A DNA stretch of 53,980 nt, taken from Parcubacteria group bacterium (GTDB lineage: Bacteria; Patescibacteriota; Minisyncoccia; Phycocordibacterales; JABMOB01). Below the pieces are notes generated by a model. The model was not told where the DNA came from, did not search any database, and saw only the letters and a list, made by a program, of their open reading frames with translations. Numbering within the stretch: the first letter of the stretch is position 1; the number at the start of each line of letters is the position of its first letter. Positions 5,891 through 50,127 of the stretch are shown here, piece after piece. The stretch covers positions 1 to 53,980 of the forward strand of contig JABMOB010000002.1 of NCBI GenBank assembly GCA_013204345.1. The letters are read 5' to 3'. Made by a program: the position numbers and the translations under genes.

Positions 5891-6100
5891 AAGGAGCTAC
5901 GGCGACTATTTTTCTAAGAAACCCTGTTAAATAGTTTTTAAATAATAATTTAAAAACTAACATTTGATAAAAAGCAGAAAATAAGTAATATTATAAGGCC
6001 TAGAAAGTTTCAAAGGGAAGGAATATGGTTCTTAAATAACATCAAATGTTATTTAACAGGGTCATTATTTTCTAAAACTCGCTACGCTCGTTAAGAAAAT
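5891..6100 (+). repeat. CCCTGTTAAAT structured intergenic repeat, long form, copy 1 (infC-rpmI)
   Basis: Core IR accctgttaaat...atttaacagggt 5921-6062, internal hairpins; near-identical arms at 43331-43537 and 47375-47580. Confidence 0.9.
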
Positions 6101-6102
6101 AT

Positions 6103-6288
6103 ATGAAAACAAACAAATCATTTGCAAAAAGATTAAAAGTCACCAAGAATGGAAAAGTCTTGGCGAGAAAAACCGGTCAAAACCATTTTAATTCAAAAGA
6201 AAGTGGCCGAAGTCAATTAGCAAAAAAAAGAAGTGTTGAATTTAAAGTTAATAATAAACTTAAAAGCCGATATCTAGTAAATCTATAA
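6103..6288 (+). CDS. rpmI: 50S ribosomal protein L35
   Basis: MKTNKSFAKRLKVTKNGK; synteny infC-rpmI-rplT. Confidence 0.95.
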   Translation: MKTNKSFAKRLKVTKNGKVLARKTGQNHFNSKESGRSQLAKKRSVEFKVNNKLKSRYLVNL

Positions 6289-6289
6289 T

Positions 6290-6634
6290 ATGACACGAGT
6301 AAAGAAAGGAACGAATGCATTAAAAACGAGAAGGAATATTTTACGAAAAGTAAAAGGTTATCGTTTTGGACGTTCCACAAAAGAAAAACAGGCGCAAGAA
6401 GCAATATTCCATGCTGGAGCATACGCTTTTGCACACAGACGCGACAAGAAAAATGACTTTAGAAAACTTTGGAATGTGAGAATCAGCGCCAAATCAAAAG
6501 AACTTGGTATTTCATATAGTAAATTAATCGGAGGAATGAAAAAGAAAAACATCCTAATTGATCGAAAGATCCTCGCTCTCCTAGCCAACGAGAATCCAGA
6601 GACCTTCAAACGAATCCTCGCAAAAATAGCGTAA
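6290..6634 (+). CDS. rplT: 50S ribosomal protein L20
   Basis: MTRVKKG...KGYRFGRS...HRRDKKNDFRKLW...IDRKILA. Confidence 0.97.
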   Translation: MTRVKKGTNALKTRRNILRKVKGYRFGRSTKEKQAQEAIFHAGAYAFAHRRDKKNDFRKLWNVRISAKSKELGISYSKLIGGMKKKNILIDRKILALLANENPETFKRILAKIA

Positions 6635-6644
6635 GACGGATGAT

Positions 6645-6674
6645 AAAAAGCCCCTTCATTGGGGCTTTTTCTTT
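6645..6674. terminator. Bidirectional terminator
   Basis: aaaaagcccc-ttcatt-ggggcttttt between convergent genes. Confidence 0.8.
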
Positions 6675-6682
6675 ATCTTCAT

Positions 6683-6704
6683 ATACTACGATATATCGTA
6701 GTAT
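6683..6704. repeat. Perfect 22-bp palindrome
   Basis: atactacgatatatcgtagtat equals its own reverse complement. Confidence 0.8.
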
Positions 6705-6740
6705 TTTACTAAATACTATTTACCAGCTACCTGTTATTGG

Positions 6741-8126
6741 CTACTTGAGCTCGTACACCTTTCCTTTTTCCGGATATATCGCATTAATTCCCACCTGATC
6801 ACGCAAGCGTTGAACTAGAAACAATGATGCTTTTGGTTCTCCCATTGCCACAAAAACTTGTTTGACAGTCTCGGCTGTACCACCCACAAACTCTACCAAA
6901 TGATCTGAGTCTTTATGTGCGGAAAAACCACTGATCATTTCAACACGCGCTCGAACTGTCACCATTTTACCATGTATAGATACCTTTTTAGCTCCTTCTT
7001 GAATCTGACGACCTAGTGTACCTACCGCCTGATAACCCATAAGTAAAATTGTGCTTTTTGGATCAGGTAAATAGTTCGTTTCATGATGTACCACCCTACC
7101 AGCATTGGACATACCGGAGCCAGCAATAATTATTTTTGGATTCGGAACAGAAAGAATAGCTTTTGAATCTTGACTTCGCGCAGTTTCTTTGATTTTTGGG
7201 AAGTTAAAAATATTATCACCAGAAGCAATTTCCTCTCTAACAGCTGGACTATAATATTTCGATATTCTTTTATATATTTCAGTAACTTTTATAGCTAATG
7301 GTGAATCCAAAAAAACAGGTACTGATTTTATCTTGTGCTCTTCTACCAAATTGTTTATTTCATATAAAATATCTTGCGTTCTTTCCAAAGAAAAAGCGGG
7401 AATAACCAAAGCGCCACCGGAAGCAACGGTTTCTTTGATGATTTGCTCAAACCTTTTCTCCCGTTCTTCTTTTGATTCATGATTTCTATCACCGTAAACA
7501 CTATCCATAATCATATAATCTGCATCGATCACAGATTCAGCATCCCTGAGAATGGTTGACGGTGAATTTCCAAGATCACCCGTAAATACAACTTTCTTTT
7601 TCGAGCCATTTTGAGGATCGGTATATGTGAATTCGTATATTGATGAACCAAGAATGTGTCCAGCATCTTTTAAATAAACTTCAAAACCATCGGCAAAAGT
7701 TTTTTTCTCATGATAAGAAATAGTTTGCCAAAGAGAAAATGCGCGGGCAACATCGTCTGCACCATATAGAGGCTCCTCACCGGTCCTTTTTGCTTCAAAT
7801 GACATTATATTCACAGCATCGGCAAGCATAAGTTCGGTAATACTTTTTGTTTCTGGAGTAGAATAAATCGTCCCAGAAAAACCGTCTTTCACCAACTTTG
7901 CTACCTTACCAATGTGGTCAAGATGAGCATGGGTGATAAATAAAAAATTGATTGATTTTGGATCATAAGGAAAAGATTTTTTATTTTCTTCGTGGGCCTC
8001 GGCAACACCCTGTAAAAGTCCACAATCTATAAGAATTTTTGTATTTCCATCATCTAAAAGAAAGTTGGCGCCAGTTACCACACCTACCCCACCCCAACAA
8101 GTCAAAGAAAGATGCCTGTTATTCAT
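6741..8126 (-). CDS. MBL-fold beta-CASP ribonuclease (YSH1/CPSF73-like)
   Basis: THAHLDHIG, AGHILGS, FTGDLG, AGSGM..AGRVVHH, FSAHKD. Confidence 0.92.
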   Translation of the reverse strand: MNNRHLSLTCWGGVGVVTGANFLLDDGNTKILIDCGLLQGVAEAHEENKKSFPYDPKSINFLFITHAHLDHIGKVAKLVKDGFSGTIYSTPETKSITELMLADAVNIMSFEAKRTGEEPLYGADDVARAFSLWQTISYHEKKTFADGFEVYLKDAGHILGSSIYEFTYTDPQNGSKKKVVFTGDLGNSPSTILRDAESVIDADYMIMDSVYGDRNHESKEEREKRFEQIIKETVASGGALVIPAFSLERTQDILYEINNLVEEHKIKSVPVFLDSPLAIKVTEIYKRISKYYSPAVREEIASGDNIFNFPKIKETARSQDSKAILSVPNPKIIIAGSGMSNAGRVVHHETNYLPDPKSTILLMGYQAVGTLGRQIQEGAKKVSIHGKMVTVRARVEMISGFSAHKDSDHLVEFVGGTAETVKQVFVAMGEPKASLFLVQRLRDQVGINAIYPEKGKVYELK

Positions 8127-8230
8127 CCCCGTTAGAAAAATTTAATTTCTGATTATATGATAATACCACTTTTATATACTAACATTTTTAGATGAAAGAC
8201 TATATCAAATTTGCTGATTTTCTAACGGGG
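8127..8230. repeat. 104-bp element with 13-bp terminal inverted repeats
   Basis: ccccgttagaaaa ... ttttctaacgggg; fills the whole intergenic space. Confidence 0.85.
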
Positions 8231-8665
8231 CAGGTTGTTTGTTTTTTTATATTCAGTAAAAAGATACCACGATGACGCAAGAGCCCCCAAACAATCAAAA
8301 ATTATATCGGACATTGTATCTTTCCAATACCCACGAAACAAAACCGAAGTGACCCCATTTGTAACTTCAAAAATCTCCCAAACAATACCCGCGAATAGGG
8401 CCGAGAAAAGAGCGATAGATAAAAAATGTATGTATGTTCCTTTGAGGGGTTTTATATATCCGGATAAAAACAGAAACCACAAAACGACAAAAGCAATCCA
8501 AAAACCACCTAGAAAATGCACAACCATATCAAACCACCAAACATTAGAGTAGAGATAAAATTTTAGAGCAAGAATATGGAGGATGGCGACAACCAAAACA
8601 ATATATAACAAATGTCTAAAGAAAGCCGTTTTTGGTGCAGAAATTTTTTCCATAATCATCATCAT
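8222..8665 (-). CDS. Membrane protein (VanZ/DUF2238-like)
   Basis: About 4 hydrophobic segments; WWFDMVVHFLGG, WEIFE, DTMSDIIFDCLGA. Confidence 0.7.
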   Translation of the reverse strand: MMMIMEKISAPKTAFFRHLLYIVLVVAILHILALKFYLYSNVWWFDMVVHFLGGFWIAFVVLWFLFLSGYIKPLKGTYIHFLSIALFSALFAGIVWEIFEVTNGVTSVLFRGYWKDTMSDIIFDCLGALASSWYLFTEYKKTNNLPR

Positions 8666-8693
8666 AACTTTTATTCATAAATAAAAAAACTAC

Positions 8694-8781
8694 CCCATCA
8701 CCAGAGGTCATATAGGCTTGCGCTTCGCCCAGCAAAAAATGTGCTATTCGCACACGCACTCGCCTTGGTGTTGGTGATGGG
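8694..8781. repeat. GC-rich structured intergenic element
   Basis: Terminal IR cccatcacca/tggtgatggg with internal small hairpins (tgtgc-tattc-gcaca). Confidence 0.55.
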
Positions 8782-8867
8782 TTAATATTTACAAATCATG
8801 TTTTGTTATTCCAAACAAAATCACGAGAAAATATTAAAATTAAAACACCCCCGAAGGAGTGACTTAA

Positions 8868-9020
8868 GTAGGGTCACTTGGAGATATACCCTAGTAGTAA
8901 AACTAGGTGGGTGTCCTCAATGTGTGTTCGTCTGAAATCAATTAAGTTCTCATCGGAACGACATAATATTGAACTCCCTTGATATTGCTTTAATCTAGAT
9001 AATATCCCAAATAACCCTAC
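8868..9020 (-). ncRNA. ssrS: Probable 6S RNA
   Basis: Closing stem gtagggttatttgggatat/atatctccaagtgaccctac; GGGAG and GAGGACACCCACC motifs as in Firmicutes-type 6S; TTGCAC-16-TATAAT promoter at 9052-9025; hairpin plus U tract at 8861-8840. Confidence 0.75.
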
Positions 9021-9113
9021 CTTAATTATAGTCTCATTAAAAAGTAGTGCAAGCGGGAAAAGGTATGCTGAATATTAAAAATAGATAACCTGCGATCCAA
9101 GGCCTGGTATCTA

Positions 9114-9140
9114 GACTTTATAGACTTTTGACTTTCGGCT
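9114..9140 (-). repeat. AAAGTC tandem repeat downstream of ndk
   Basis: gactttata gactttt gactttcggct; same family as 12571, 13085, 14191, 44195, 45664. Confidence 0.7.
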
Positions 9141-9147
9141 CGATGGT

Positions 9148-9762: not shown

Positions 9763-9825
9763 AATTTTTTGATAAATTTAGTTAATATGAATCACATTGT
9801 ACTACTCTCTAAAAAAATCGCCAGT

Positions 9826-11187: not shown

Positions 11188-11189
11188 AA

Positions 11190-11281: not shown

Positions 11282-11283
11282 AT

Positions 11284-12555: not shown

Positions 12556-12570
12556 GAAATTTTTTTCTTC

Positions 12571-13059: not shown

Positions 13060-13084
13060 GTTTTGAATTTTTATATTTTGTTTT

Positions 13085-13807: not shown

Positions 13808-13822
13808 ATTTCTGTTCAGATA

Positions 13823-14173: not shown

Positions 14174-14190
14174 TGAATTTTATTTTGTCT

Positions 14191-14775: not shown

Positions 14776-14816
14776 GCCAATTTTATATGAATGCTAATGA
14801 ATAATTAAATTGCGCG

Positions 14817-14924
14817 CCCTGTTAAATCCCGCCTTGCGGGATCATTCGTTGGTACGAATGATATTTAACAGGGTAGTGTTTTGCATCCACACTTTGAAGT
14901 TCGCAAGCAAACTCCAAAGTGTGG
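14817..14924 (-). repeat. CCCTGTTAAAT repeat, short form (rpsH-rplF), plus adjacent ccacacttt/aaagtgtgg hairpin
   Basis: Core 14817-14873 nearly identical to 50042-50098 with compensatory changes; second IR 14887-14924. Confidence 0.88.
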
Positions 14925-14934
14925 GCACAAGCCA

Positions 14935-15324
14935 CTACCATATTCTAAACAAAACCTCACCCCCAACGTTTTCTTTTTTAGCTTGCTTATCACCCATAAT
15001 ACCTTTTGGAGTCGTCAAAACGAGCATACCAAACCCTTGCTTCACTTTCTTTATATCCTTAGCTTTGTGATAAACCCTTCTTGAAAATTTAGAAACTCTT
15101 TCTGCTCCCTTTATTCTTGACATACCATCTTCATAAATAAGGCCAATCTCAATAAGATTTGTGATTTTTTTGCCTTTTTTTGTGACATCTTTCAAATAAC
15201 CTTCTTTTTGCAAAAGTTCAGCTATAGCGAGCTTGAGTTTTGAGTACGGCAAAAGCAAAGACTCCTTTTCGGCTTCTCCTGCATTCTTTATTCGTGTTAT
15301 CATATCCGCGATTGGATCGTTCAT
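14935..15324 (-). CDS. rpsH: 30S ribosomal protein S8
   Basis: DPIADMITRIKNA, RVSK.SRRVY, TTPKGIM, GGEVL. Confidence 0.98.
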   Translation of the reverse strand: MNDPIADMITRIKNAGEAEKESLLLPYSKLKLAIAELLQKEGYLKDVTKKGKKITNLIEIGLIYEDGMSRIKGAERVSKFSRRVYHKAKDIKKVKQGFGMLVLTTPKGIMGDKQAKKENVGGEVLFRIW

Positions 15325-15354: not shown

Positions 15355-15540
15355 TTACCATGATGATTTTTTAATTCCGGGAATTTTCCCTTCGTTGGCT
15401 AATTCTCTAAAACAGATACGGCAAAGGTCAAAGTCTCTCATAAATGCACGCTTTCGTCCACACTTAAAGCATCTTCGAACAATTCTTGTCGAAAATTTTG
15501 GTGTCTTTTTAGCTCGTGCGATTACTGATTTCTTTGCCAT
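15355..15540 (-). CDS. rpsN: 30S ribosomal protein S14 (Zn-binding, type Z)
   Basis: 61 aa, RCFKCGR...[21 protein letters not shown]. Confidence 0.97.
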
Positions 15541-25767: not shown

Positions 25768-26478
25768 ATGTCAAATCCGATAATTCAGTTGAAATTCGAT
25801 CAAAAACTAGACCTAGAGATGGGTTGGGAATTTTATTCGGACCAGGAATTTGGTGGTTGTAATTTTTGGAAAGAACGAGCATTAGCTCACCACCCAAAGC
25901 TTTCAGAAATTGAAATGGCCAAAAATCCACATCTTTTTTTAGATCAGTACATTTCTGAATTTTACAATATTCATTCTTCAGAGATGAATGGCCTTAGCCA
26001 AAAGACACCTTTGTATCTTAGTGAATCTCAAGATCTCTTTTTTGAATTGGTTGACAAGATATTTAATCATTACCCTTGGCCAAAAAAAGAGTTCGTCGGC
26101 ATCTTTTCAATTTTTGATTTTTGTCCGCGTTTTATAGATTCAGGCAGTTTCCAAATTTTTCTTTATGATAATCGCCGTATGCAACTTTTTACTATTTTCC
26201 ACGAAATGTTACATTTCATTTTTTATGCTTATGCTCAAAAAACTTTTCCGGAAAAGTTTACAAATTTAAATACTGATGAGGGTAAATTTTGGGATTTAGC
26301 AGAAATATTTAATGCTGTGATTCAAGATACGGATGATTTCATTAAACTCCACGGCAAAATAGAGGGTATTGGTTATCCAAACCACCAAGAAATGATTATT
26401 ACTGGTAAGGATTTATGGAAAAATAATCCTAATATTAATGGGTGGATTACTGAAATGATGAAAACTCTCTCAAAATAA
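25768..26478 (+). CDS. Hypothetical protein with HEXXH (possible Zn metalloprotease)
   Basis: FHEMLHF and downstream LAE. Confidence 0.6.
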   Translation: MSNPIIQLKFDQKLDLEMGWEFYSDQEFGGCNFWKERALAHHPKLSEIEMAKNPHLFLDQYISEFYNIHSSEMNGLSQKTPLYLSESQDLFFELVDKIFNHYPWPKKEFVGIFSIFDFCPRFIDSGSFQIFLYDNRRMQLFTIFHEMLHFIFYAYAQKTFPEKFTNLNTDEGKFWDLAEIFNAVIQDTDDFIKLHGKIEGIGYPNHQEMIITGKDLWKNNPNINGWITEMMKTLSK

Positions 26479-26531
26479 ACGCAGCAAAAAATATGCAGAA
26501 CTATCTTACGTATTTGAAAATATTATTCGGC

Positions 26532-26759
26532 CTACAAATTGTCGCCAGAGGTCGTGTCAAGATTTTCCTCATCAATAACTGGAGTATCAGAAGCTTGTTC
26601 TCCACCGTCCGTTAGAGCTTCCTCATCAGTGACAACTTCTTCCTCGGTATTCACCACTTCAAAATCCTGTCTTATAACAGTCTTGTAAAAAGTGTAGCCG
26701 ATTGAAGCGACAGCAACGATTATTATGACCCATAACAATATCTTTGATTTTTTATCCAT
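26532..26759 (-). CDS. Small membrane-anchored acidic protein
   Basis: MDKKSKILL..TM..IGYTFY, paralogous N-terminus to 22797-23159. Confidence 0.7.
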   Translation of the reverse strand: MDKKSKILLWVIIIVAVASIGYTFYKTVIRQDFEVVNTEEEVVTDEEALTDGGEQASDTPVIDEENLDTTSGDNL

Positions 26760-26787
26760 TGTAGTGCTATTATGATTCTAATTATAT

Positions 26788-36221: not shown

Positions 36222-36493
36222 AAAAAATCGGAATCCCCTGCTGGTGCAAACATCGCAATACGTTTTTGGAAAGATTATTCTCATTTTTATAATTTTTACC
36301 TGAAAATCAATAACGAAGCGGAGCGAGTAGCTTTTAGGCTATTTTTGGTTTAATATAGATAACAACATGATAACCTCAAAAACTATCACTACTTGGTCCA
36401 GTTTTATTTAAAACGAACACACTGTTTCGTTTAGTTTGATTTACGTTAATTAGAAGAAGAAAGTCTCATAACTCAACCCAAAGGAGATCTCTC

Positions 36494-42396: not shown

Positions 42397-43017
42397 TTAG
42401 GCAACGTCCTCTACTTTTTCCGGCTTAGGCTTTCTGTCTCTTTTCTTTTTCTCTTTCTTGGTAGCTTCTTCTGCTTCAGCTTTTTTGAAAGGAAAACCTA
42501 GGTGATCAAAAAATGCCCGAGCCTCATCTTTGTTTTTTGCGGTAGTGACTATAGTGACAGCTAATCCAAAAACATCTTTGAGTTCTTCGTCTGTTGTTTC
42601 TGGAAAAATCGTGTTCTCACGAATACCTAATGTATAGTTACCCATAGGATCAATTCCTTTTGAAGAAATACCTCGAAAATCTTTTGTTCGTGGAAGTGCG
42701 ACGTTTATAAGTCTATCCAAAAAATCATACATTCTTTTCCCTCGAAGGGTTGTCTGGAAACCTACAGGATCACCCTCTCTAACCTTGAAAGTTGCGATTG
42801 AAACTTTCGCACCCTTTTTTGCGGCTTTTTGACCTGTAATTTTGGTCAATTTCTCAGCGACAAGATCAATTTTCTTTTTGTCTTTGAATGAGCCGACACC
42901 AGAAGAAACAACCAACTTTACAATTTTTGGTGCCTGCATTTTGTTGGTATAACCTCGAGTGGCTTTTAGAGCCTCAAATGCTTTGTCGTTTTTTTCTTTT
43001 ATGGAAATTGTTTTCAT
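42397..43017 (-). CDS. rplE: 50S ribosomal protein L5 (basic C-terminal tail)
   Basis: ITGQK, SIATFKVREG, TLRGKRMYDFL, LPRTKDFRG. Confidence 0.98.
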   Translation of the reverse strand: MKTISIKEKNDKAFEALKATRGYTNKMQAPKIVKLVVSSGVGSFKDKKKIDLVAEKLTKITGQKAAKKGAKVSIATFKVREGDPVGFQTTLRGKRMYDFLDRLINVALPRTKDFRGISSKGIDPMGNYTLGIRENTIFPETTDEELKDVFGLAVTIVTTAKNKDEARAFFDHLGFPFKKAEAEEATKKEKKKRDRKPKPEKVEDVA

Positions 43018-43022
43018 ATTTT

Positions 43023-43328
43023 TTACAAACTAACTCCGCTTTTCTTGCTAACCCTTATATTCTTTCCGTCAACATTTTTTATTCCTACACGGGAAGGCTT
43101 ACCGGTTTTTGGATCAACGATCATTACATTTGAAACATGTATAGGTAAAGCTTTATCAACAATCTGACCCTTCTGATCACTTTTGGTCGCTTTTTTATGA
43201 ACCTTTTTAACATTTACACCCGCAAGAAGAATTTTATTTTCTTCAGGAAAAGCTCTCAAAACTTTACCTGTTTTGCCTTTATCCTTTCCGGTAATCACTA
43301 TTACATTGTCATCTTTTCTGATTTTCAT
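43023..43328 (-). CDS. rplX: 50S ribosomal protein L24
   Basis: VIVITGKDKGKTGKV, PIHVSNV. Confidence 0.98.
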   Translation of the reverse strand: MKIRKDDNVIVITGKDKGKTGKVLRAFPEENKILLAGVNVKKVHKKATKSDQKGQIVDKALPIHVSNVMIVDPKTGKPSRVGIKNVDGKNIRVSKKSGVSL

Positions 43329-43330
43329 AT

Positions 43331-43537
43331 ATTTTCTTAACGAGCAAAGCGAGTTTTAGAAAATAATGACCCTGTTAAATAACATTTGATGTTATATGGG
43401 CAAAATCTTCTATTCTCTCTGTACTCTTTGTATATTACATATTACTCATTATTAGTTTTTTATCAAATGTTAGTTTTTAAATAATAATTTAAAAACTATT
43501 TAACGGGGTGTGAACATTATAGTCGCTCCGCTCCTTA
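43331..43537 (-). repeat. CCCTGTTAAAT repeat, long form (rplN-rplX)
   Basis: Core 43369-43509; arms match copies at 5891 and 47375. Confidence 0.9.
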
Positions 43538-43542
43538 ATGTT

Positions 43543-43914
43543 CTACACTACTTCTGGGGCTTTAGAAATTATTGTTTGGAAACCTAATTCTGCAATTTCT
43601 CTAGGAATAGGACCGAAGATTCTACCTGCGATAGGTTCATTTTTCTCTTTTTCTAAAATAACAACAGCATTTTCATCAAAACGAATGTACGAACCGTCTT
43701 TCCTTCGAAAAGGAACTTTTTGTCGAACCACAACGGCACGTAAAACATCTTTCTTTTTTACTGTTTTTCTAGGTTGAGCTTTTTGAACAGACAAAATAAC
43801 AAAATCTCCAATACGAGCATATCTCTTTTTTGAACTACCAAGAACCTTAAAAACCCTACCGATAGTTCCTCCAGAGTTGTCAGATATTTTTACAATAGAT
43901 TGTGGTTGAATCAT
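43543..43914 (-). CDS. rplN: 50S ribosomal protein L14
   Basis: MIQPQS...DNSG, RKDGSYIRFDENA, RIFGPI.RE, APEVV. Confidence 0.98.
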   Translation of the reverse strand: MIQPQSIVKISDNSGGTIGRVFKVLGSSKKRYARIGDFVILSVQKAQPRKTVKKKDVLRAVVVRQKVPFRRKDGSYIRFDENAVVILEKEKNEPIAGRIFGPIPREIAELGFQTIISKAPEVV

Positions 43915-43918
43915 GTTT

Positions 43919-44188
43919 TTATATTACTTTAAAATGCTTGTCTTTTGATATTGGAGCGACTTCAACAATACTCACAGTTTCACCTTCTTTTTTTGTATTT
44001 CCAGTATCGTGTGCTTTATATCGTTTGCTTACTTGAAAATATTTACCGTATTTAGGATGCTTCACAAAACGGTTCACGGATACAACGATCGTGTCTTTCA
44101 TTTTTGTGGACACAACCTTACCCGAAAGAACCTTACCTTTTGAAGATGTCGGTTTCTCTGTATTTTGTTTTGTTTCTGTGTTTTTCAT
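43919..44188 (-). CDS. rpsQ: 30S ribosomal protein S17
   Basis: GKVVSTKMKDTIVV, HPKYGK, KAHD, PISKDK. Confidence 0.97.
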   Translation of the reverse strand: MKNTETKQNTEKPTSSKGKVLSGKVVSTKMKDTIVVSVNRFVKHPKYGKYFQVSKRYKAHDTGNTKKEGETVSIVEVAPISKDKHFKVI

Positions 44189-44194
44189 GTATTT

Positions 44195-44250
44195 AACTTT
44201 ATGGACATTATAGACCTGTCTGCCGCGCTCGGCACAGGCAGGCTTTGGCT
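44195..44250 (-). repeat. AAAGTC repeat with nested CCTGCCTG..CAGACAGG hairpin after rpmC
   Basis: TAG-CCAAAG[CCTGCCTGTGCCGAGCGCGGCAGACAGG]TCTATAATGTCCATAAAGTT. Confidence 0.7.
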
Positions 44251-44425
44251 ACTTCTTATTCAATTCTGTCAAAATCCTAGCAATATCTTTTCGCAAAGCT
44301 TTACCCTCTTTTACATTTCTAGTCTTGCTCCCAGCGATACTGAAACGAAAATTCTTTAAAGCGACCCTCTTATCCTCAAGAGTTTTGACCAATTCGTTTT
44401 CTTTTTTATCTTTAAATTCTGACAT
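44249..44425 (-). CDS. rpmC: 50S ribosomal protein L29
   Basis: NFRFS...RKDIARILTELN; between rplP and rpsQ. Confidence 0.93.
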   Translation of the reverse strand: MSEFKDKKENELVKTLEDKRVALKNFRFSIAGSKTRNVKEGKALRKDIARILTELNKK

Positions 44426-44475
44426 AACATTTGGTAACCTATCATTAATCACCCACTATTTCAAGTGCACAGACC

Positions 44476-44901
44476 TTAAAACATATCTCTAGAAATCACC
44501 TTGGATTTTACAGGTAATTTTGTACCTGCCTTCCTCAAAGCTTCTCGGGCCACCTCTTCTGTGGCGCCGTCGCACTCAAAAATGACCCTCCCTGGCTTTA
44601 CGGGGACATGGTAACCCTGTGGGTCACCTTTCCCTTTTCCAAGCTTCACCTCGGCTGGTTTTGCTGTGTATGGCATATCTGGGAAAATTCTAATCCAAAT
44701 CTTTCCTGTCTTACCAAGAGTCCTAGAAAGAACTTTTCTGGCAGATTCGATTTGATTTGATCTGATTCTAAAAGGAGTTGTTGCTTTTAGACCAAATGAG
44801 CCAAAAGCAAGAGTTGTGGCACGGGAAGCAACTCCAATTTTATTTGGATTCTTTCTCATTGTGTGCCATTTTCTATGTTTTACTTTCTTTGGTAGTAACA
44901 T
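44476..44901 (-). CDS. rplP: 50S ribosomal protein L16
   Basis: MLLPKKVKHRK, QIESAR, WIRIFPD, GKGKG. Confidence 0.98.
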   Translation of the reverse strand: MLLPKKVKHRKWHTMRKNPNKIGVASRATTLAFGSFGLKATTPFRIRSNQIESARKVLSRTLGKTGKIWIRIFPDMPYTAKPAEVKLGKGKGDPQGYHVPVKPGRVIFECDGATEEVAREALRKAGTKLPVKSKVISRDMF

Positions 44902-44910
44902 GTTGGTAAA

Positions 44911-45579
44911 TTATACTTTCGGTTTATCATCAAAAATATCTCCTTTGTATATCCGAACTTGGATACCAATTTTTCCATAGGCAAGACGTGCTTCATATCG
45001 GGCAAAATCAACATCCGCACGAAAAGTCTGAAGAGGGACACGTCCTTTCTTCAACTTTTCTTTTCGTGACATATCCGCACCGCCAAGACGTCCCGAGAGT
45101 TGGATCTTTACACCCAAAACTTCTTTATTTGCCATAACTTTTTCTACTGCCTGCTTTACAACCCTACGGAAAGGCATACGTTTTTCCAAACCTTCAGAAA
45201 CCATCTGAGCTACAATGGAAGCGTTTGATTCTGGGTATCGAATCTCTTTGATATCGAGCTTAACTTCCTCACTACAAGAAAGACCTCCCCTTTCCAACAT
45301 CGCCATAATGTCATTTTTGAGTTTGACCGCACCTTCACCGTTCCGACCGATAAGTATGCCGGGGCGGGAAGTTTCTATGATAATTCGAAGAGTTTTTTGG
45401 CTTCTCTCCATTTCAATATTACTTATAAAGAAACCTCGGAATTTCTTTTCTAAATATTCACGTAGAAGTACATCACTTTTTAGAAATTCTTTATACTTTC
45501 CTTTTACACCAAACCATCGAGATTTCCAATCTCTAATAATTCCTAATCTATGTGAATATGGGTGGACTGTATGGGACAT
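44911..45579 (-). CDS. rpsC: 30S ribosomal protein S3
   Basis: VHPYSHRLGI..W.SRW, RPGILIGR.G, SGRLGGA, GRVPLQTFRA. Confidence 0.98.
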   Translation of the reverse strand: MSHTVHPYSHRLGIIRDWKSRWFGVKGKYKEFLKSDVLLREYLEKKFRGFFISNIEMERSQKTLRIIIETSRPGILIGRNGEGAVKLKNDIMAMLERGGLSCSEEVKLDIKEIRYPESNASIVAQMVSEGLEKRMPFRRVVKQAVEKVMANKEVLGVKIQLSGRLGGADMSRKEKLKKGRVPLQTFRADVDFARYEARLAYGKIGIQVRIYKGDIFDDKPKV

Positions 45580-45603
45580 GGATAATTAATTTAAAATTAC
45601 AAA

Positions 45604-46029
45604 TTATGAATTATCAATTTTAGCTTTTGATTCTTTTTTCGAAGCTGTTTTTGTTTTTGAATCTGACTTTACAGACTTTACAGACTTTGCACTTTCGACT
45701 CTCGGTTCGAGCACGACCGAGATATGGCTTGTTCTCTTGCGCATAGGATGAGCTCGTCCACGAGATGCTGGAAGCCTTCTATATAAAATAGATCCGCCAT
45801 CTACTCTAATTTCTTTTATAAAAAGATTTGAAATATCAATATTTAAATTTTTTGCGTTTGAAACAGCTGATTCTATAAGACACTTCAGCGGAAGACCCGC
45901 TTTTTTGTCCAGAAATTTTAGAGACTGAATCGCAACATCAACTTTTTTCCCTCTAACAAAATTGGCAACAACACGAACTTTTCGCGGAGAGTGTCTATAA
46001 TTTTGCAATGTTGCTGTAGCTGTGCTCAT
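45604..46029 (-). CDS. rplV: 50S ribosomal protein L22 with repeat-derived C-terminal tail
   Basis: SPRKVRVVA, SAVSNA, RGRA...RKRTSHI; tail ESAKSVKSVKSD. Confidence 0.97.
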   Translation of the reverse strand: MSTATATLQNYRHSPRKVRVVANFVRGKKVDVAIQSLKFLDKKAGLPLKCLIESAVSNAKNLNIDISNLFIKEIRVDGGSILYRRLPASRGRAHPMRKRTSHISVVLEPRVESAKSVKSVKSDSKTKTASKKESKAKIDNS

Positions 46030-46052
46030 AAATTTAATATGGTATGTTTGTC

Positions 46053-46397
46053 TTATTTTTTGGCTTCTGCTGTAGTTGTTTTTGCAGCTTGAGCACTAGC
46101 GATTTCACCCTCTTTCTTTTTCTGCTCCAAATCCTTCTGCATTCGTCCTCCATGTTTGATAAATTTGCGAGTTGGAGAAAATTCACCCAATCGATGACCA
46201 ACCATATCTTCCGAAACTAGAACTTCTATAAAATCCCTACCGTTGTGCACTCCAAATTTAAAGCCAACCATCTCAGGGGCAATCTGACTATCGCGCGCCC
46301 ATGTTTTAACAACACCAGCTTCCATAGCCTTTTTGCCTTCTATTTTTTTTAGAAGTTTTTCGTAGACATATGGGCCTTTTTTGGACGATCGTGTCAT
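46053..46397 (-). CDS. rpsS: 30S ribosomal protein S19 (C-terminal extension)
   Basis: [32 protein letters not shown]; ATG at 46397. Confidence 0.97.
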
Positions 46398-46434
46398 AAA
46401 ATATAGAAAACAGCTCCATACGAGCGTGGATAAC

Positions 46435-46463
46435 ATACTAAACGAATTGGCTAAATAAGTCAA
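46435..46463 (-). promoter_or_regulatory. Internal promoter upstream of rpsS
   Basis: TTGACT-17-TAGTAT. Confidence 0.65.
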
Positions 46464-46502
46464 CGCCTATGTAACTAAGCCATAAAAAAAACCGAATGAA
46501 CC

Positions 46503-46530
46503 TTAAAAAGCGAGATTATCCTCGCTTTTT
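46503..46530 (-). terminator. Terminator after rplB
   Basis: aaaaagcgag-gataat-ctcgcttttt. Confidence 0.7.
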
Positions 46531-46532
46531 TA

Positions 46533-47372
46533 CTACTTCTTTCCAACCTTTCTTCTAGAAACAATAAGTTTGTTTGAATATTTTTTAGGTCGGCGAGACT
46601 TCTGACCTTTTCCAACAGGCTTACCCCAACGAGTCTTGGCGCGTCGCAAACCTCTTCCAGATCGTCCCTCACCTCCTCCATATGGGTGATCAACGGGGTT
46701 TTGGGCAGTACCACGAACAGTAGGGCGGATTCCGAGCCATCGACTTCTTCCAGCCTTACCAATATTCACAAGACGATTTTCTTCATTTGAAACTTCACCA
46801 ATAGACGCCCAAGCTTTTTCTGAAATTTTTCTTACCTCAGTTGAGGGTAGTTTGATATCTACATAACCAGCATCTTTTGCGACTACTTCGGCGTAATTTC
46901 CCGCAGAACGTCCAAGTTTTGCCCCTCCGTTTGGTTTTACCTCAACATTGTATATAAAAGTTCCTACTAAAATTTCTTTTAATTGCAATCGATTACCTGG
47001 TTTGATAGGAGCTTTTGCTGATGTTATGAGCACATCCCCAACCTTTACACTTTTTGGAAGAAGTATGTATCTTTTTTCGCCATCAGCGTAATTAACCAAA
47101 CTGATGAAACCTGATCTGTTTGGGTCATACTCAACAGTCTTCACAGTGTAAGGAATGTCTATTTTATCAAATCGAAAATCAACAGCTCTCCACATTCTTT
47201 TGTGACCACCCCCTTTGTGACGAGTCGTAATACGTCCAAAACTGTTTCTACCCACAGATCTCTTGAAACCACCGGTCAGAGATTTTTCTGGATTTTGTGA
47301 AGTAATAACGCCCCTATATGAAATAGTCGTAAGGTGCCTTCGTGATTTACTTGTTGGTTTATAGTGCTTCAT
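46533..47372 (-). CDS. rplB: 50S ribosomal protein L2
   Basis: GRN..GRIT.RH.GGGHKR, EYDPNRS, GKAGRSRWLG.RP.VRG...NPVDHP.GGGEG. Confidence 0.99.
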   Translation of the reverse strand: MKHYKPTSKSRRHLTTISYRGVITSQNPEKSLTGGFKRSVGRNSFGRITTRHKGGGHKRMWRAVDFRFDKIDIPYTVKTVEYDPNRSGFISLVNYADGEKRYILLPKSVKVGDVLITSAKAPIKPGNRLQLKEILVGTFIYNVEVKPNGGAKLGRSAGNYAEVVAKDAGYVDIKLPSTEVRKISEKAWASIGEVSNEENRLVNIGKAGRSRWLGIRPTVRGTAQNPVDHPYGGGEGRSGRGLRRAKTRWGKPVGKGQKSRRPKKYSNKLIVSRRKVGKK

Positions 47373-47374
47373 GG

Positions 47375-47580
47375 ATTTTCTTAACGAGCATAGCGAGTTT
47401 TAGAAAATAATGACCCTGTTAAATAACATTTGATTGTTATATGGGTAAAATATTCTATTATCCTCATACTCTGTGCGTGTTACATATTACTTATTTTTGG
47501 TTTTTTATCAAATGTTAGTTTTAAATTGCTATTTAAAACTATTTAACAGGGTGAGTAAAATATAATCACTCTGTTCCTTA
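47375..47580 (-). repeat. CCCTGTTAAAT repeat, long form (rplW-rplB)
   Basis: Core 47413-47552. Confidence 0.9.
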
Positions 47581-47582
47581 TT

Positions 47583-47975
47583 TTACACCACCTCAATTTT
47601 ATCCTCTTTTTTCAAATAAACGTACGCTTTTTTTATACCTGACTTTGTACCACGCTTGCCTCTTACAAAAACACTCTTCTTGGGTGTATTTACAATATTT
47701 ACACGTACAGGAGTTACTTTATACATTTCGTGGACAGCTTGTGCAACAGATTTTTTATTTGCCTTTTTTGTAACCTCAAACACATGTACGTTTTCTGACT
47801 CAGATTTAAACGACGCTTTTTCAGTAATACGTGGACGAATAATAACAGTCTCTGTTCGACTTTTGACAGTAGCTGTAGATTCTACAACTGTAGGTTTTGA
47901 CGCCACAACAGCAACTTCTTTTACTTCTTTAACCACGTCAGCCTTTGTATTCTTTTTTCTTCCTAAAAGTGCCAT
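47583..47975 (-). CDS. rplW: 50S ribosomal protein L23 (N-terminal extension)
   Basis: RPRITEKA, F.V...ANK, KKAYV.L. Confidence 0.96.
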   Translation of the reverse strand: MALLGRKKNTKADVVKEVKEVAVVASKPTVVESTATVKSRTETVIIRPRITEKASFKSESENVHVFEVTKKANKKSVAQAVHEMYKVTPVRVNIVNTPKKSVFVRGKRGTKSGIKKAYVYLKKEDKIEVV

Positions 47976-47976
47976 G

Positions 47977-48759
47977 TTATTTTTGTTTGCTTTCTATAAA
48001 TTTTAAAGACTCTTTTGGTTCAGAAATAACAAGATATTTATACTTTAGAACTTTAATGGGATTTAGATTGCGAATTTCTTGAACTTCCATATTACCAAAA
48101 TTACTAAAACTTTTTTCAACCGCCATATCTTTTTTGGAGATAGTTATGAGAGTGGAGTTTGTTTTCTTGCCTACAATTCCACCAAAACCTTTTATTCCTT
48201 TTAGAAATGACAGAGTTTCTAGGGCTTCTTTTGTTTTTGGTTTAACAAAAGTTAGAGAGTCTATAAAAAGAATTTCCCCATCACGATATTTTTTAGAAAG
48301 AATCGTGAAAAGCGCCATGGCTTTCATTTTTTTGTTTACTTTTTTATCAAAATTTTTGTCGTTTCTTGGACCGTGAGTGACACCTCCTCCAACCCAAATA
48401 GGTGACCGCGTAGAGCCGTGACGAGCACGTCCCGTACCTTTTTGCTGCCATGGTTTCTTACCACCACCTCGCACATCCGCACGACTTTTTGTATGAGCGA
48501 TAGCGTTTCTTGCACTAGAGAGTAACGACTGCACAGTCTGATGAACAAGGTCAGCATTCCATCTCAAACCAAAAATGTCTTCTGGCAAAGTTATCTTTTC
48601 AACCTCCTTACCTTTTTGATCGTAAACAGTAGCTTCCATTGTGGTAGCCACCTTTTTTTCAACTTTTTCGCTTTTTGGAATTCCTTCAGATACAGGTGCT
48701 GCCTTTTTTGCTCGAGCAGAAGTTGTTGGAGTATTCTTTTTTACAGTAGTCTTTTCCAT
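47977..48759 (-). CDS. rplD: 50S ribosomal protein L4 (N-terminal extension)
   Basis: TKSRADVRGGGKKPWQQKGTGRARHGSTRSPIWVGGG. Confidence 0.98.
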   Translation of the reverse strand: MEKTTVKKNTPTTSARAKKAAPVSEGIPKSEKVEKKVATTMEATVYDQKGKEVEKITLPEDIFGLRWNADLVHQTVQSLLSSARNAIAHTKSRADVRGGGKKPWQQKGTGRARHGSTRSPIWVGGGVTHGPRNDKNFDKKVNKKMKAMALFTILSKKYRDGEILFIDSLTFVKPKTKEALETLSFLKGIKGFGGIVGKKTNSTLITISKKDMAVEKSFSNFGNMEVQEIRNLNPIKVLKYKYLVISEPKESLKFIESKQK

Positions 48760-48768
48760 ATAATATTT

Positions 48769-49380
48769 TTAACCTTTGATTTCTACCAAAGTCCCCCTTC
48801 TCCCTGGAATTGCACCACTAATCAAAATTTTATTGTTTACAGCGTCTATCTGCAAAACCTTAAGATTCTTTACTGTGATATTATCGCTACCCATTCGGCC
48901 AGGCATACGCATTGCTTTTGGAACTTTGTTTCTAAGTCCTCCTCCGATAGATCCCGGCTCTCTTTCTGAATGTTTTTGACCATGACTTCTTGGGCCACCT
49001 TTGAAACCGTGTCTTTTAACAACACCTTGGAAACCTTTGCCTTTTGAAATAGCAGAAATAGACACAGTATCGCCTGTAGCAAAAACTGAGGATTCAATTT
49101 TATCACCAACATTTGAAATAACGTCTTCTTCTTTTAATCTGATTTCTTTAACCTTAGCGAAATTACCCAGAGTTTTGAAATGACCTTTTTGTGCTTTATT
49201 GATATTTTTTTCGTGACGTTCGCCAAAACCAACCTGCACAGCTTTGTAGCCATCTTTTTCCTTGTCTTTGACCTGAACAACCACAGCGGGAGTTATCTCT
49301 ATAACGGTTGCAGGAAAACTACGGCCTTCGTCATCAAAGACCTGTGACATACTCAATTTTTTACCAAAGATAAATTTCAT
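48769..49380 (-). CDS. rplC: 50S ribosomal protein L3
   Basis: GKKLSM, DGY.AVQ, SKGKGFQGVVKRHGF, PGRMG. Confidence 0.98.
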   Translation of the reverse strand: MKFIFGKKLSMSQVFDDEGRSFPATVIEITPAVVVQVKDKEKDGYKAVQVGFGERHEKNINKAQKGHFKTLGNFAKVKEIRLKEEDVISNVGDKIESSVFATGDTVSISAISKGKGFQGVVKRHGFKGGPRSHGQKHSEREPGSIGGGLRNKVPKAMRMPGRMGSDNITVKNLKVLQIDAVNNKILISGAIPGRRGTLVEIKG

Positions 49381-49381
49381 G

Positions 49382-49586
49382 TGATTGATTTTAAAGGAAT
49401 GTAATGACTATTAAAATCATCACCCTGTTAAATAACATTTGATTGTTACAACAGGAGTGCATTCCTCTTACATAACCGTAAGTCCTACATACTACTTATT
49501 TTTGATTTTTAATCAAATGTTGATTTTAAATTATTATTTAAAATCATTTAACAGGGTAACTAAAAACATAGTCGCTCCGCTCCTTG
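49382..49586 (-). repeat. CCCTGTTAAAT repeat, long form with alternative 3' arm (rpsJ-rplC)
   Basis: Core 49422-49557; 49382-49433 identical (52 bp) to 50001-50052. Confidence 0.9.
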
Positions 49587-49593
49587 TTTTTGC

Positions 49594-50001
49594 TTACATT
49601 ATCTTCACGTCTATATTTACCCCAGACGGTAAACTCAAATTTGTGAGTGATTCAATGATCTTTTGACTAGGGTTCAATATATCAATCAACCTCTTGTGGA
49701 TTCTCATCTCAAATTGTTCTCGCGCATTTTTGTAGACGAAAGCAGAGCGATTAACTGTATATTTTTTAATACTAGTAGGAAGAGGTATCGGACCAAGAAC
49801 CTTGGCATCATACCGAAGGGCTGTGTCGATTATTTGCTTCACAGATAAATCAAGTATTTTGTACTCATATGCCTGAACACGTATACGAAGTTTTGAAATA
49901 CCCTCCTCTTTTGAGACGGTTTTCACTTTTTTGACACGCGGCGCCTTTGCTCGTACTGAGCCTGTCGAAGTATCTTTTTTTGTTATAGTTTCTTCAGCCA
50001 T
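49594..50001 (-). CDS. rpsJ: 30S ribosomal protein S10 (N-terminal extension)
   Basis: LRIRVQAY, GPIPLPT, REQFEMRIHKRLIDI, LPSGV. Confidence 0.98.
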   Translation of the reverse strand: MAEETITKKDTSTGSVRAKAPRVKKVKTVSKEEGISKLRIRVQAYEYKILDLSVKQIIDTALRYDAKVLGPIPLPTSIKKYTVNRSAFVYKNAREQFEMRIHKRLIDILNPSQKIIESLTNLSLPSGVNIDVKIM

Positions 50002-50127
50002 GATTGATTTTAAAGGAATGTAATGACTATTAAAATCATCACCCTGTTAAATCCCGCCTCGCGGGATCATTTGCTGGTGCAAATGATATTTAACAGGGTA
50101 AGGAAATTATAGTCGCTACGCTCGTTA
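50002..50127 (-). repeat. CCCTGTTAAAT repeat, short form with outer arms (tuf-rpsJ)
   Basis: Core 50041-50099. Confidence 0.9.

Follow-up and report, generated by a model that had tools for sequence, protein, structure and literature searches.

Ribosomal-protein spacers of a Parcubacteria genome carry structured repeats that are probably gene-less derivatives of a foldback element with a GIY-YIG nuclease gene

Main finding

Analysis of a 53,980-nucleotide stretch of a Parcubacteria group bacterium (contig JABMOB010000002.1; "the window" denotes this whole stretch) indicated that the structured repeats filling its ribosomal-protein spacers are probably the gene-less (MITE-like), non-autonomous offshoots of a mobile DNA element of very small size and foldback type. 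The initial annotation had raised the possibility of a mobile element that is non-autonomous and is kept in highly expressed operons, a reading supported by a putatively autonomous copy with the same repeat elsewhere in the genome (contig C40, 19643-19924), by filled and empty sites among relatives and by a bias towards ribosomal-protein genes. The C40-type element would be the autonomous form, with a predicted nuclease gene inside the inverted repeat. In the gene-less copies the loop would have been replaced by two small hairpins (short forms) or by a non-coding insert of approximately 80 nt (long forms).

Repeats in the window

A search for CCCTGTTAAAT with one mismatch allowed returned 12 half-sites in the window, forming six inverted pairs at 5922/6061, 14817/14873, 43370/43508, 47414/47551, 49423/49556 and 50042/50098. 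Shuffled windows contained 1.67 ± 1.35 half-sites, and at least 12 were reached in 0 of 100 shuffles. The copies were correctly placed in the initial annotation upstream of rpmI, rplF, rplX, rplB, rplC and rpsJ; Pfam assigned the downstream products to L35, L6, L24, L2, L3 and S10, respectively. Hairpin order and arms were alike in all six, giving one common orientation relative to the mRNA. Folding confirmed that each core consists of a closing stem with two abutting hairpins, with z-scores of −5.9 to −8.4 as DNA on either strand.

The first element (E1, long form, 5882..6102, plus strand) spans the distance from the infC stop (5879-5881) to the rpmI ATG (6103) and comprises a 5′ arm hairpin (approximately 5884-5921), a core (5922-6061) and a 3′ arm of type A (6062-6102). 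The other five are on the minus strand. E2 (short form, 14776..14934) separates the rpsH stop (14935-14937) from the rplF ATG (14775); its core (14817-14873) is flanked by divergent hairpins unlike the canonical arms. E3 (long form, 43329..43542) extends from the rplN stop (43543-43545) to the rplX ATG (43328), with a 3′ arm A at 43329-43369, the core at 43370-43508 and the 5′ arm at 43509-43542. The rplW/rplB spacer is occupied by E4 (long form, 47373..47582; 3′ arm A 47373-47413, core 47414-47551, 5′ arm 47552-47582), with the rplW stop inside the arm stem, and the rpsJ/rplC spacer by E5 (long form, 49381..49593; 3′ arm B 49381-49422, core 49423-49556, 5′ arm 49557-49593). E6 (short form, 50002..50134) fills the tuf/rpsJ spacer with a 3′ arm B (50002-50041), a core (50042-50098) and a 5′ arm (50099-50134) whose stem starts with the tuf stop codon. 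The reported 52-nt identity of 49382-49433 and 50001-50052 was exact.

The accessory block, described as free of copies, has no paired copy at 15.5-42.3 kb but does contain an arm-like motif, AAGCGGAGCGAG, at 36316. The six canonical copies are joined by a seventh, a relative with a variant repeat (8127..8230, minus strand), which has a 13-bp inverted repeat, CCCCGTTAGAAAA / TTTTCTAACGGGG, adjoins the ATG of the gene at 6741-8126 and includes in its 5′ repeat the stop TAG of the gene at 8222-8665. The same repeat variant also brackets GIY-YIG genes in two related loci (L128 and L130).

Copies across the genome and the gene-bearing form

The whole genome (G000) contains 15 paired copies, and a search with up to two mismatches per half-site added none. 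Nine of the 15 are directly upstream of ribosomal-protein genes (binomial approximately 1e-7 at a prior of 6.7%), so that the bias is real but not exclusive genome-wide: the remaining copies were found upstream of nusG, mraZ, pilC (T2SSF) and a membrane protein gene, in the divergent rodA/galU spacer and after an M23 peptidase gene. The arm-core-arm unit measures 130-215 bp and leaves none of the spacer free between the stop codon upstream and the ATG downstream. In this arm-bearing CPR subfamily, the two flanking hairpin arms are each capped by CGAGCGNAGCGAG in mutually inverted orientation. The outer arms, initially suggested to pair with each other, are complementary at only 9-11 of 14 positions within one element, and two separate local hairpins gave the better fold. 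A simple terminator scan, modelled on unbranched stems, detected no terminator-like site at the elements.

The full-form copy on contig C40 is 282 bp long and lies between pilT and pilC. It has the layout 5′ arm, core containing the gene, 3′ arm, and the 14 other cores of the genome are gene-less. An intact gene for an 84-aa single-domain GIY-YIG protein is enclosed in the 11-bp inverted repeat CCCTGTTAAAT...ATTTAACAGGG, the 3′ half of which codes for the final residues Y-L-T-G, with the stop codon in the next three bases. The protein matched Pfam GIY-YIG (PF01541) with an E-value of 7.8e-18 over residues 1-71, i.e., the nuclease domain alone, and its closest solved structures were UPF0213 proteins (E 8.7e-5). 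A group I intron with a GIY-YIG homing endonuclease was rejected, since there was no intron model match, the nuclease domain stands alone and the only NCBIfam match, TIGR01453, was sub-threshold (23 bits vs. a cut-off of 56). Homologues numbered 4186 at E ≤ 1e-3, and 12 of 16 fetched ones end in KSYLTG; a plasmid tblastn search with the nuclease returned one weak Enterococcus match. A GIY-YIG enzyme is not known to act as a bacterial transposase. The initial annotation had considered a substrate of ssDNA recombination or of an HUH enzyme; the ssDNA part remains plausible, whereas the associated enzyme is a small GIY-YIG nuclease and not HUH/RAYT.

The predicted ssDNA fold of the C40 copy is a three-way junction in which P1 joins both ends, while in P2 and P3 the 5′ leader and the C-terminal codons pair with codons of the NLKLRFE motif. 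Compensatory changes have preserved both P2 and P3 in the ORF copy. Among themselves, the seven long cores share 74-88% identity; they lack similarity to the nuclease ORF, which indicates that the gene-less copies themselves have multiplied. Their interior as a decayed nuclease ORF was rejected, as alignment scores fell within the shuffle range for all seven.

Relatives and evidence for mobility

The element type is common in ultra-small (CPR) bacteria. The repeat-pair pattern was detected in 20 out of 301 genomes from the order, or 16 out of 190 genera, and the reversed control pattern in none; the exact repeat was found at 15 of 80 related loci, some of them in delta-proteobacterial and Nitrospirales MAGs. 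Among 72 related loci with an intact ORF of 70-100 aa, the bracket was at least 11/12 complementary in 48, compared to 2 of 72 with shuffled upstream sequence, and the bracket arms include co-varying variants such as CCCCGTGAGATA. Short cores across genomes had exactly two abutting hairpins in 53 of 59 cases, with 58 distinct inner sequences. The strong covariation is seen between genomes; within this genome, where compensatory changes had initially been noticed, only 2 of 31 predicted long-core pairs changed on both sides. A T.G/C.A mismatch is conserved just outside the P1 stem. Core polarity relative to neighbouring genes was weakly biased in other genomes (17 agree, 9 disagree).

Comparison of empty and filled sites revealed presence/absence polymorphism at orthologous positions. 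The site of an ORF-bearing copy (G167:129090-129372) is empty in the congeneric genome G294; conversely, G294 has copies at 41535, 34233 and 62911 whose sites in G167 are empty. In contigs from two runs of two studies, 94.7% identical to the window, position 43334 is joined to 43552 with 7 nt between, and the empty rplN-rplX site reads stop TAA, ATAT and ATG. No target-site duplication was visible: among 88 copies, flanks of 2, 3 and 4 nt were identical in 9, 8 and 1, where permutation gave means of 11.3, 7.8 and 1.1, and the three filled/empty pairs gave no clean element boundary. Genome G245 was compared with its congeners G174 and G300, G078 being from a different genus; in G300 the rpsM-rpsK spacer contains an unrelated 240-nt sequence.

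Level of the structure and alternative explanations

The elements could instead be cis-acting structured RNAs (regulators, RNase processing sites or translational coupling devices) conserved in ribosomal-protein mRNAs, which we consider highly improbable. Every copy in this genome is in a transcribed spacer in one orientation, the same junctions are filled in other families (rplN-rplX in G000, G014 and G252; rplW-rplB in G000 and G040), the position upstream of nusA is occupied in four genomes, and hairpin loops on the sense strand are purine-rich (AAA 9 vs. TTT 0). However, G.U pairs (42 sense vs. 53 antisense, of approximately 1500 pairs) and folding energy (the more stable strand was sense in 20 elements and antisense in 25) lacked strand asymmetry, which indicates a DNA-level structure; single examples of mRNA-strand G.U pairs failed over 50 oriented elements as a sign of RNA-specific structure, and GNA triloops as marks of the folded strand were likewise rejected (9 sense vs. 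7 antisense, no bias). On the mRNA strand, P1 contains a C.A mismatch in two copies of this genome. No described RNA family, ribosomal-protein leaders included, matched the elements: Rfam 15 at gathering score found only tmRNA in the window, and in E-value mode there were no matches on 42900-50300 even at E ≤ 1 and three sub-threshold chance matches in 12 loci. The empty rplN-rplX site in the relative of about 95% identity, the different element types at the same junction in different genomes, and the bracketing by the same repeat of the nuclease gene and, in one genome, of a tRNA also speak against the cis-RNA or mRNA processing site initially suggested. Coupling by arms that bring the stop near the ATG through the SD-like AAGGAG failed as well. 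The host is without a Shine-Dalgarno system (the 16S rRNA 3′ end lacks the anti-SD CCUCC, and SD-like 4-mers precede 50 of 524 long ORFs vs. a background of 9.3%, i.e., no enrichment), so the AAGGAG of the arm does not serve as a ribosome-binding site.

A selfish origin followed by co-option of the long form as a portable adaptor is also unlikely. The 5′ arm would supply or embed the upstream stop, the long core an outward promoter and the 3′ arm an A-rich downstream leader. All seven long cores carry, in sense orientation, TTGAT[AT] or TTGACG, 15-16 nt and TA[AG]TAT; the most divergent copy (C41) keeps the hexamers though its spacer sequence differs, and the approximately 45 nt after TA[AG]TAT are variable. 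In E4, E6, C25 and L011 the stem of the 5′ arm contains the upstream stop, the core-to-ATG distance is 39-46 nt wherever the 3′ arm is present, and remnants of the form GGGG, 3′ arm and ATG survive at C6:15135 and C23:16860. Against this, promoter-like matches are frequent in this AT-rich DNA (28 vs. 19 ± 4.4 in shuffles of 7.4 kb), the −35 hexamer shares positions with the P3 stem, itself conserved in any case, and the motif is absent from the short forms, which fill the same kind of site. It is also rather improbable that the hairpins serve as target marks of an Ssn-type ssDNA nuclease, retained by the host and modulating recombination of incoming transforming DNA at the most conserved operons, a role proposed for NTS in Neisseria (PMC11893778). 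In the published system, NTS repeats are concentrated near particular genes and lower the transformation achieved with DNA that they flank (PMC11893778), the copies studied here cluster at core operons, and type IV pilus genes adjoin element copies in this genome. Conversely, the distribution is patchy (20/301 genomes), close relatives differ in the sites that are occupied, the SRM consensus finds no match, and only one nuclease gene in this genome has a matching repeat.

Proposed mechanism and significance

For the preferred explanation, gene-less derivatives of a foldback element, the analogy with Ssn enzymes suggests that the nuclease may recognise the folded ssDNA stem regardless of loop content and may act in trans on the gene-less copies. 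Copies probably persist in essential operons because initiation is SD-independent and the A-rich end of the 3′ arm adjoins the ATG. The strong bias of the arm-bearing subfamily towards ribosomal-protein and nusA starts, together with its fixed orientation, is beyond a simple selfish-element model. New here are the arm-core-arm unit filling stop-to-start spacers, the preference of the arm-bearing subfamily for ribosomal-protein and NusA genes, the conserved promoter-like motif in long cores and the conserved T.G/C.A mismatch just outside the stem; full-text searches of the literature outside subscription journals found no account of a hairpin loop that contains a GIY-YIG gene and has gene-less derivatives. 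More tentatively, and with some doubt, the elements might constitute an undescribed class of prokaryotic transposable elements: foldback cassettes moved as folded ssDNA by their own Ssn-like GIY-YIG nuclease, with the mismatch outside the terminal stem setting the strand and the gene-less derivatives serving as portable stop-promoter-leader adaptors that colonise ribosomal-protein operons of an SD-less CPR host.

If the 84-aa nuclease mobilises the hairpins, the element, at approximately 0.28 kb, would rank with the smallest known autonomous mobile elements, and the recently described Ssn-type ssDNA nucleases would gain a role in transposition. It would also exemplify selfish DNA able to live in the most essential, compact operons of genome-reduced, SD-less bacteria. 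It is the stem-specific, loop-indifferent recognition implied here that gives Ssn enzymes their appeal as tools for work with ssDNA. In annotation, spacers of 130-215 bp in CPR ribosomal-protein operons should be read as insertions, not as regulatory leaders.

Comparison with known systems

In bacterial MITEs and their parent insertion sequences (Correia/NEMIS, RUP, ERIC), short non-coding copies share terminal inverted repeats with a coding parent; such MITEs are intergenic and co-transcribed and may have promoter-like motifs. Likewise, the non-coding copies described here share inverted repeats with a coding element, lie between genes where they are presumably co-transcribed, may carry promoter-like motifs and show presence/absence polymorphism. 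They differ in the lack of a visible target-site duplication, in the maintenance of internal hairpins and in a parent that encodes a GIY-YIG nuclease rather than a DDE, serine or tyrosine transposase.

In REP/BIME with RAYT (Y1 HUH) and IS200/IS605, too, the hairpin repeats are believed to be processed as folded ssDNA, and a single small enzyme gene sits between its own repeats (PMC11893778). An asymmetric feature could set strand choice in both cases, here the T.G/C.A mismatch outside P1, but the enzyme class is different. No copies flank a RAYT/IS200-type gene, an association initially considered: within approximately 600 nt of the sole Y1_Tnp gene of the genome (C9:19608-19919) there was no P1 or arm motif, barring chance matches with three mismatches, and it is the GIY-YIG gene that carries the repeat. 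Non-intron insertion sequences encoding GIY-YIG proteins have been reported inside CPR rRNA genes (Tsurumaki et al., 2024; PMC11270868). These share with the present elements small CPR GIY-YIG genes in conserved, highly expressed genes and the lack of an intron family match, but they lie inside rRNA genes, and inverted-repeat brackets or gene-less derivatives are not among the features described in the sections of that paper considered here.

The closest parallel is with Ssn nucleases and their NTS/dRS3/SRM repeats, as presented in PMC11893778. Ssn nucleases cut ssDNA next to a hairpin and tolerate replacement or extension of its loop; the arrangement NTS-ssnA-NTS is similar to an insertion sequence (Chenal et al., 2025). 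In 12 of the 14 supplementary files of that paper, CPR names are absent. The SRM consensus HGTCWYN(0-2)YYVSBRHN(0-5)WNVSBRGN(0-2)RNCYNB had no matches in 756 kb on both strands (0-3 in five mononucleotide shuffles). Here, in contrast to the published systems, the gene is inside the repeat loop and the 3′ repeat half is coding, the core is a three-way junction plus two arm hairpins, and there are 15 copies rather than hundreds. Common to both are a single-domain GIY-YIG protein of roughly 85-95 aa (84 aa here), a gene flanked by hairpin-forming repeats, many intergenic gene-less repeat copies and a patchy distribution across bacteria. Loop content is irrelevant to the published enzyme, which fits the stems found here that enclose hairpins, a gene or a tRNA. 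By this analogy, the element would work much like the Ssn nuclease and NTS/SRM hairpin systems.

Structure and genomic distribution of the repeat elements

The initial annotation described six structured repeats in the window, upstream of rpmI (5891–6100), rplF (14817–14873), rplX (43331–43537), rplB (47375–47580), rplC (49382–49586) and rpsJ (50002–50127). A search with the motif CCCTGTTAAAT (at most one mismatch) recovered these as 12 matches forming six inverted pairs, compared to 1.67 ± 1.35 matches in shuffled windows; 12 matches were reached in none of 100 shuffles. Pfam upheld the identities of the flanking genes (IF3/L35, S8/L6, L14/L24, L23/L2, S10/L3, and EF-Tu/S10), and the uniform orientation relative to the mRNA was borne out: all six elements shared one plan of 5' arm, core, and 3' arm. 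In mRNA orientation, the 5' hairpin arm begins at, or just past, the upstream stop codon, the core closes a junction of two hairpins by an 11-bp stem (P1), as proposed earlier, and the 3' hairpin arm ends 0–2 nt short of the downstream ATG. The reported 52-nt identity between 49382–49433 and 50001–50052 was exact. The suggested pairing of the outer arms with each other found little support: within an element, the arms are complementary at only 9–11 of 14 positions, and each arm forms a local hairpin.

The window search also confirmed that the 27-kb block from rplE to rpsN is free of paired copies. This block (15541–42396) interrupts the S10-spc operon between rplE (42397–43017) and rpsN (15355–15540), and is made up of ordinary genes with metabolic, envelope, or regulatory roles (GNAT, methyltransferase, histidine kinase, arginase, LD-carboxypeptidase, glycosyltransferases, NUDIX, ABC transporter, sigma-70 factor). 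In the best-matching DNA sequencing run (X1), contigs stop at every repeat copy between 43370 and 50042, so that the assembly spans the elements solely through joins between repeat-bounded pieces; the genes across these repeats are in the canonical S10 operon order. Ribosomal protein S10 (49594–50001; 135 aa) carries an N-terminal extension of ~38 residues ahead of its Pfam domain (residues 39–133). Another type of element, built on a 13-bp inverted repeat (CCCCGTTAGAAAA/TTTTCTAACGGGG), is located on the minus strand at 8127–8230, where it adjoins the ATG of the gene at 6741–8126 and holds the stop codon of the gene at 8222–8665 within its 5' repeat. This repeat variant also brackets GIY-YIG genes at two Patescibacteria loci (L128 and L130).

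In the whole genome (756 kb in 47 contigs, the window being contig C12), exactly 15 paired copies were found with at most two mismatches per half-site. The bias towards ribosomal protein genes held genome-wide, with nine of the 15 copies directly upstream of such genes (L35, L6, L24, L2, L3, S10, L13, S18, and L10) vs. ~7% expected from an estimated ~52 ribosomal protein genes in ~780 genes (binomial probability ~1e-7). Single copies precede nusG, mraZ, pilC (T2SSF), and a membrane protein gene; of the remaining two, one occupies the spacer between the divergent rodA and galU genes, the other the stretch separating an M23 peptidase gene from its terminator.

An autonomous copy encoding a GIY-YIG nuclease

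Copies flanking a nuclease gene had been proposed as a possibility, and one 282-bp copy on contig C40 (19643–19924) indeed encloses an ORF, the product of which is an 84-aa GIY-YIG domain (PF01541, E 7.8e-18). The ORF (C40:19673–19924) starts 30 nt inside the 5' repeat, and its reading frame continues through the 3' repeat, so that ATTTAACAGGG encodes the terminal residues Y-L-T-G, directly followed by the stop TGA. Both inner stems, P2 (AATTTTAAATT/AATTTAAAATT) and P3 (AAGATTTGAG/CTCAAATCTT), are kept in this copy, with compensatory changes relative to the gene-less long forms; the codons of its NLKLRFE motif contain one half of each stem (3' for P2, 5' for P3). Among the seven long cores of the genome, pairwise identity is 74–88%, and none is similar to the ORF, indicating that the gene-less form has itself multiplied.

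Four further small GIY-YIG ORFs in the genome lack this repeat. One of these (C6:14518–14730) lies upstream of nusA, between the halves of a 16-bp inverted repeat of its own; this nusA was assigned by visual comparison with the Pfam-verified NusA at another locus (L013), which it resembles. Other small GIY-YIG genes, at C23:5711–6520 and on C24 and C35, directly adjoin tRNA genes, and the C23 insertion is flanked by duplicated pieces of the tRNA 5' and 3' ends.

Homologues of the 84-aa protein number 4186 at E ≤ 1e-3; the top 120 show 68–100% identity, and almost all of them are 84–86 aa long. A C-terminal KSYLTG was present in 12 of 16 fetched homologues. Relatives in species-representative genomes were found at 190 loci, of which 80 were kept. 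The same repeat pair occurred at 15 of these 80, including MAGs labelled delta-proteobacterium, Desulfobacteraceae, and Nitrospirales. Among the 72 loci with an intact ORF of 70–100 aa, the 5' leader and the 3' end of the ORF were complementary at 11 or more of 12 positions in 48, compared to two of 72 in the shuffled control. These brackets comprised 26 distinct 5' 12-mers (e.g., CCCCGTGAGATA, CCCGTTAGAGAT, and CCTGTGTAATAA), and thus the stem co-varies while the protein retains its LTG ending. In 40 of 45 callable flanks, ORF-bearing cassettes had the same orientation as the neighbouring gene.

Gene-less copies and site polymorphism in related genomes

Of 301 genomes in the order, 20, from 16 of 190 genera, carried the pattern CCYTGTTAAAT-N(20–300)-ATTTAACARGG at up to 18 copies per genome; the reversed control pattern was absent from all of them. 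In total, 88 non-redundant copies were collected. Four further ORF-bearing copies of 283–294 bp were present in genomes G167, G107, G197, and G245. Exactly two abutting hairpins inside P1 were found in 53 of 59 short cores (median folding z-score −5), with distinct inner sequences in 58 of the 59. Outside the window genome, the strand of gene-less cores agreed with that of the neighbouring gene in 17 cases and disagreed in nine. At one locus (L170; G039:C20:11692–11798), an intact tRNA-Gly(CCC) lies within P1 of the same repeat, and this unit interrupts an apparent second tRNA-Gly gene.

Comparison of empty and filled sites in relatives revealed presence/absence differences between the congeneric genomes G167 and G294. 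The site orthologous to the ORF-bearing copy at G167:129090–129372 is empty in G294, the G294 copies at 41535, 34233, and 62911 are all lacking in G167, and the G167 copy at 64444 corresponds to a 5'-truncated remnant in G294. For the rplN-rplX spacer, contigs of two metagenome runs from two studies, 94.7% identical to the window over 42902–43335, join position 43334 to 43552 with 7 nt between. Here rplN ends in ...APEIV and the stop TAA, followed by ATAT and the ATG of rplX; a close relative therefore has a spacer of only 4 nt where, in the window, the element fills 214 nt.

The three bases outside P1 were mostly TTA...TGA (13 of 88 copies) or its mirror TCA...TAA (15 of 88), while the fully complementary TCA...TGA was never observed among the 88; inverted complementarity of the 3-nt flanks was depleted (3 observed vs. 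15.9 expected). This bias produces a conserved T.G mismatch (C.A on the other strand), which gives the folded element a polarity. Direct identity of the flanks was at chance level in the 88 copies, and hence no target duplication was seen.

Hairpin arms, target preference, and promoter-like motifs

Each arm is a local hairpin with the tip CGAGCGNAGCGAG or, in the 5' arm, AAGGAGCGGAGCGAC, the tip motif reading in sense on the 5' side and in antisense on the 3' side. Arms flank both sides of most CPR relatives of the ORF-bearing cassette and none of the non-CPR ones shown; genomes of genus g70 have cores without arms. The core lies 39–46 nt from the ATG with a 3' arm and 2–9 nt without one. Among 49 candidate downstream ORFs scanned in other genomes, 37 had a Pfam match, including 11 ribosomal proteins (L14, L5, L2, L24 twice, L20, L10, L15, L11, S20, and S11) and four NusA. 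By our tally, nine ribosomal proteins and the four NusA are among the 24 ORFs at 34–47 nt and none among the ~10 at 30 nt or less, so the bias belongs to the arm-bearing subfamily. Since copies at the same junction differ in type between genomes, the data point to repeated insertion at favoured junctions rather than to one ancient insertion.

Hairpins with unrelated stems and the tip motif CGAGCGAAGCGAG also occur outside the elements (C33:23252, C20:4987, C38:1–136, C23:5525, C23:6366, and window 36316–36327). The first lies inside uvrC, apparently in frame with its coding sequence; two others are placed on either side of another small GIY-YIG gene.

All seven long cores carry promoter-like hexamers in sense orientation (TTGAT[AT] or TTGACG, 15–16 nt, TA[AG]TAT), followed by ~45 variable nt. 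The hexamers (43439–43466 and 47484–47511 in the window) occupy the same columns of the long-core alignment (A1) and point toward the downstream gene; the most divergent long core retains them with a changed spacer sequence.

DNA palindrome or cis-acting RNA

The initial annotation had also considered a cis-acting RNA. In 50 elements oriented by their neighbouring genes, G.U pairs numbered 42 in sense and 53 in antisense among ~1500 pairs of the predicted helices, and the better-folding strand was the sense strand in 20, the antisense strand in 25, with five ties. The elements upstream of rpsJ and rplF folded equally as DNA on both strands, in two copies P1 contained a C.A mismatch when read on the mRNA strand, and no Rfam family was matched. 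The lack of strand asymmetry, together with these observations, fits a DNA palindrome rather than an RNA under strand-specific selection.

Neighbouring ribosomal protein genes have no Shine-Dalgarno sequence before their start codons, and their leaders are A/T-rich. The AAGGAG of the 5' arm, which belongs to the arm motif, was rejected as a Shine-Dalgarno sequence because the 3' end of the 16S rRNA lacks the CCUCC anti-Shine-Dalgarno, and Shine-Dalgarno-like 4-mers are not enriched genome-wide (50 of 524 long ORFs, equal to the 9.3% background). The 16S rRNA gene on C18 (about 25900–27060, and around reverse-strand position 1509) contains an insertion with a coding sequence for a LAGLIDADG-type protein.

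Proposed mobilisation and comparison with known systems

The family thus comprises inverted-repeat cassettes encoding only a small GIY-YIG nuclease, along with gene-less derivatives; it is polymorphic for presence and structured on both strands. Ssn enzymes are described in PMC11893778 as binding a hairpin stem in ssDNA, cutting beside it, and tolerating any loop, with their genes placed between their own repeats in an insertion-sequence-like manner. By analogy, the nuclease may recognise folded P1 in ssDNA, perhaps together with the arm hairpins, and would thereby mobilise full and gene-less copies alike. The sense orientation of autonomous copies could reflect reliance on host read-through transcription, and essential operons would tolerate the elements if initiation needs just an A-rich leader, as supplied by the 3' arm.

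The single Y1_Tnp (IS200/RAYT-like) gene of the genome (C9:19608–19919) may have a separate repeat, as a short motif recurs in its translated flanks on either side. Nothing closer than the Ssn system was found by searches of the full-text literature and of the supplement to the Ssn paper. Tsurumaki et al. (2024; PMC11270868) reported that rRNA genes of CPR bacteria can contain non-intron insertions with GIY-YIG genes, and passages on these insertions do not mention repeat brackets. The published SRM consensus, the hairpin repeat of the Ssn/NTS system, had no matches here, and sections of PMC11893778 describing Ssn include neither the gene-inside-loop layout nor the three-way junction or the arm-core-arm unit. 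Ssn/NTS-SRM is the closest described system, sharing with the present family both the type of protein and the logic of a gene placed between hairpins.
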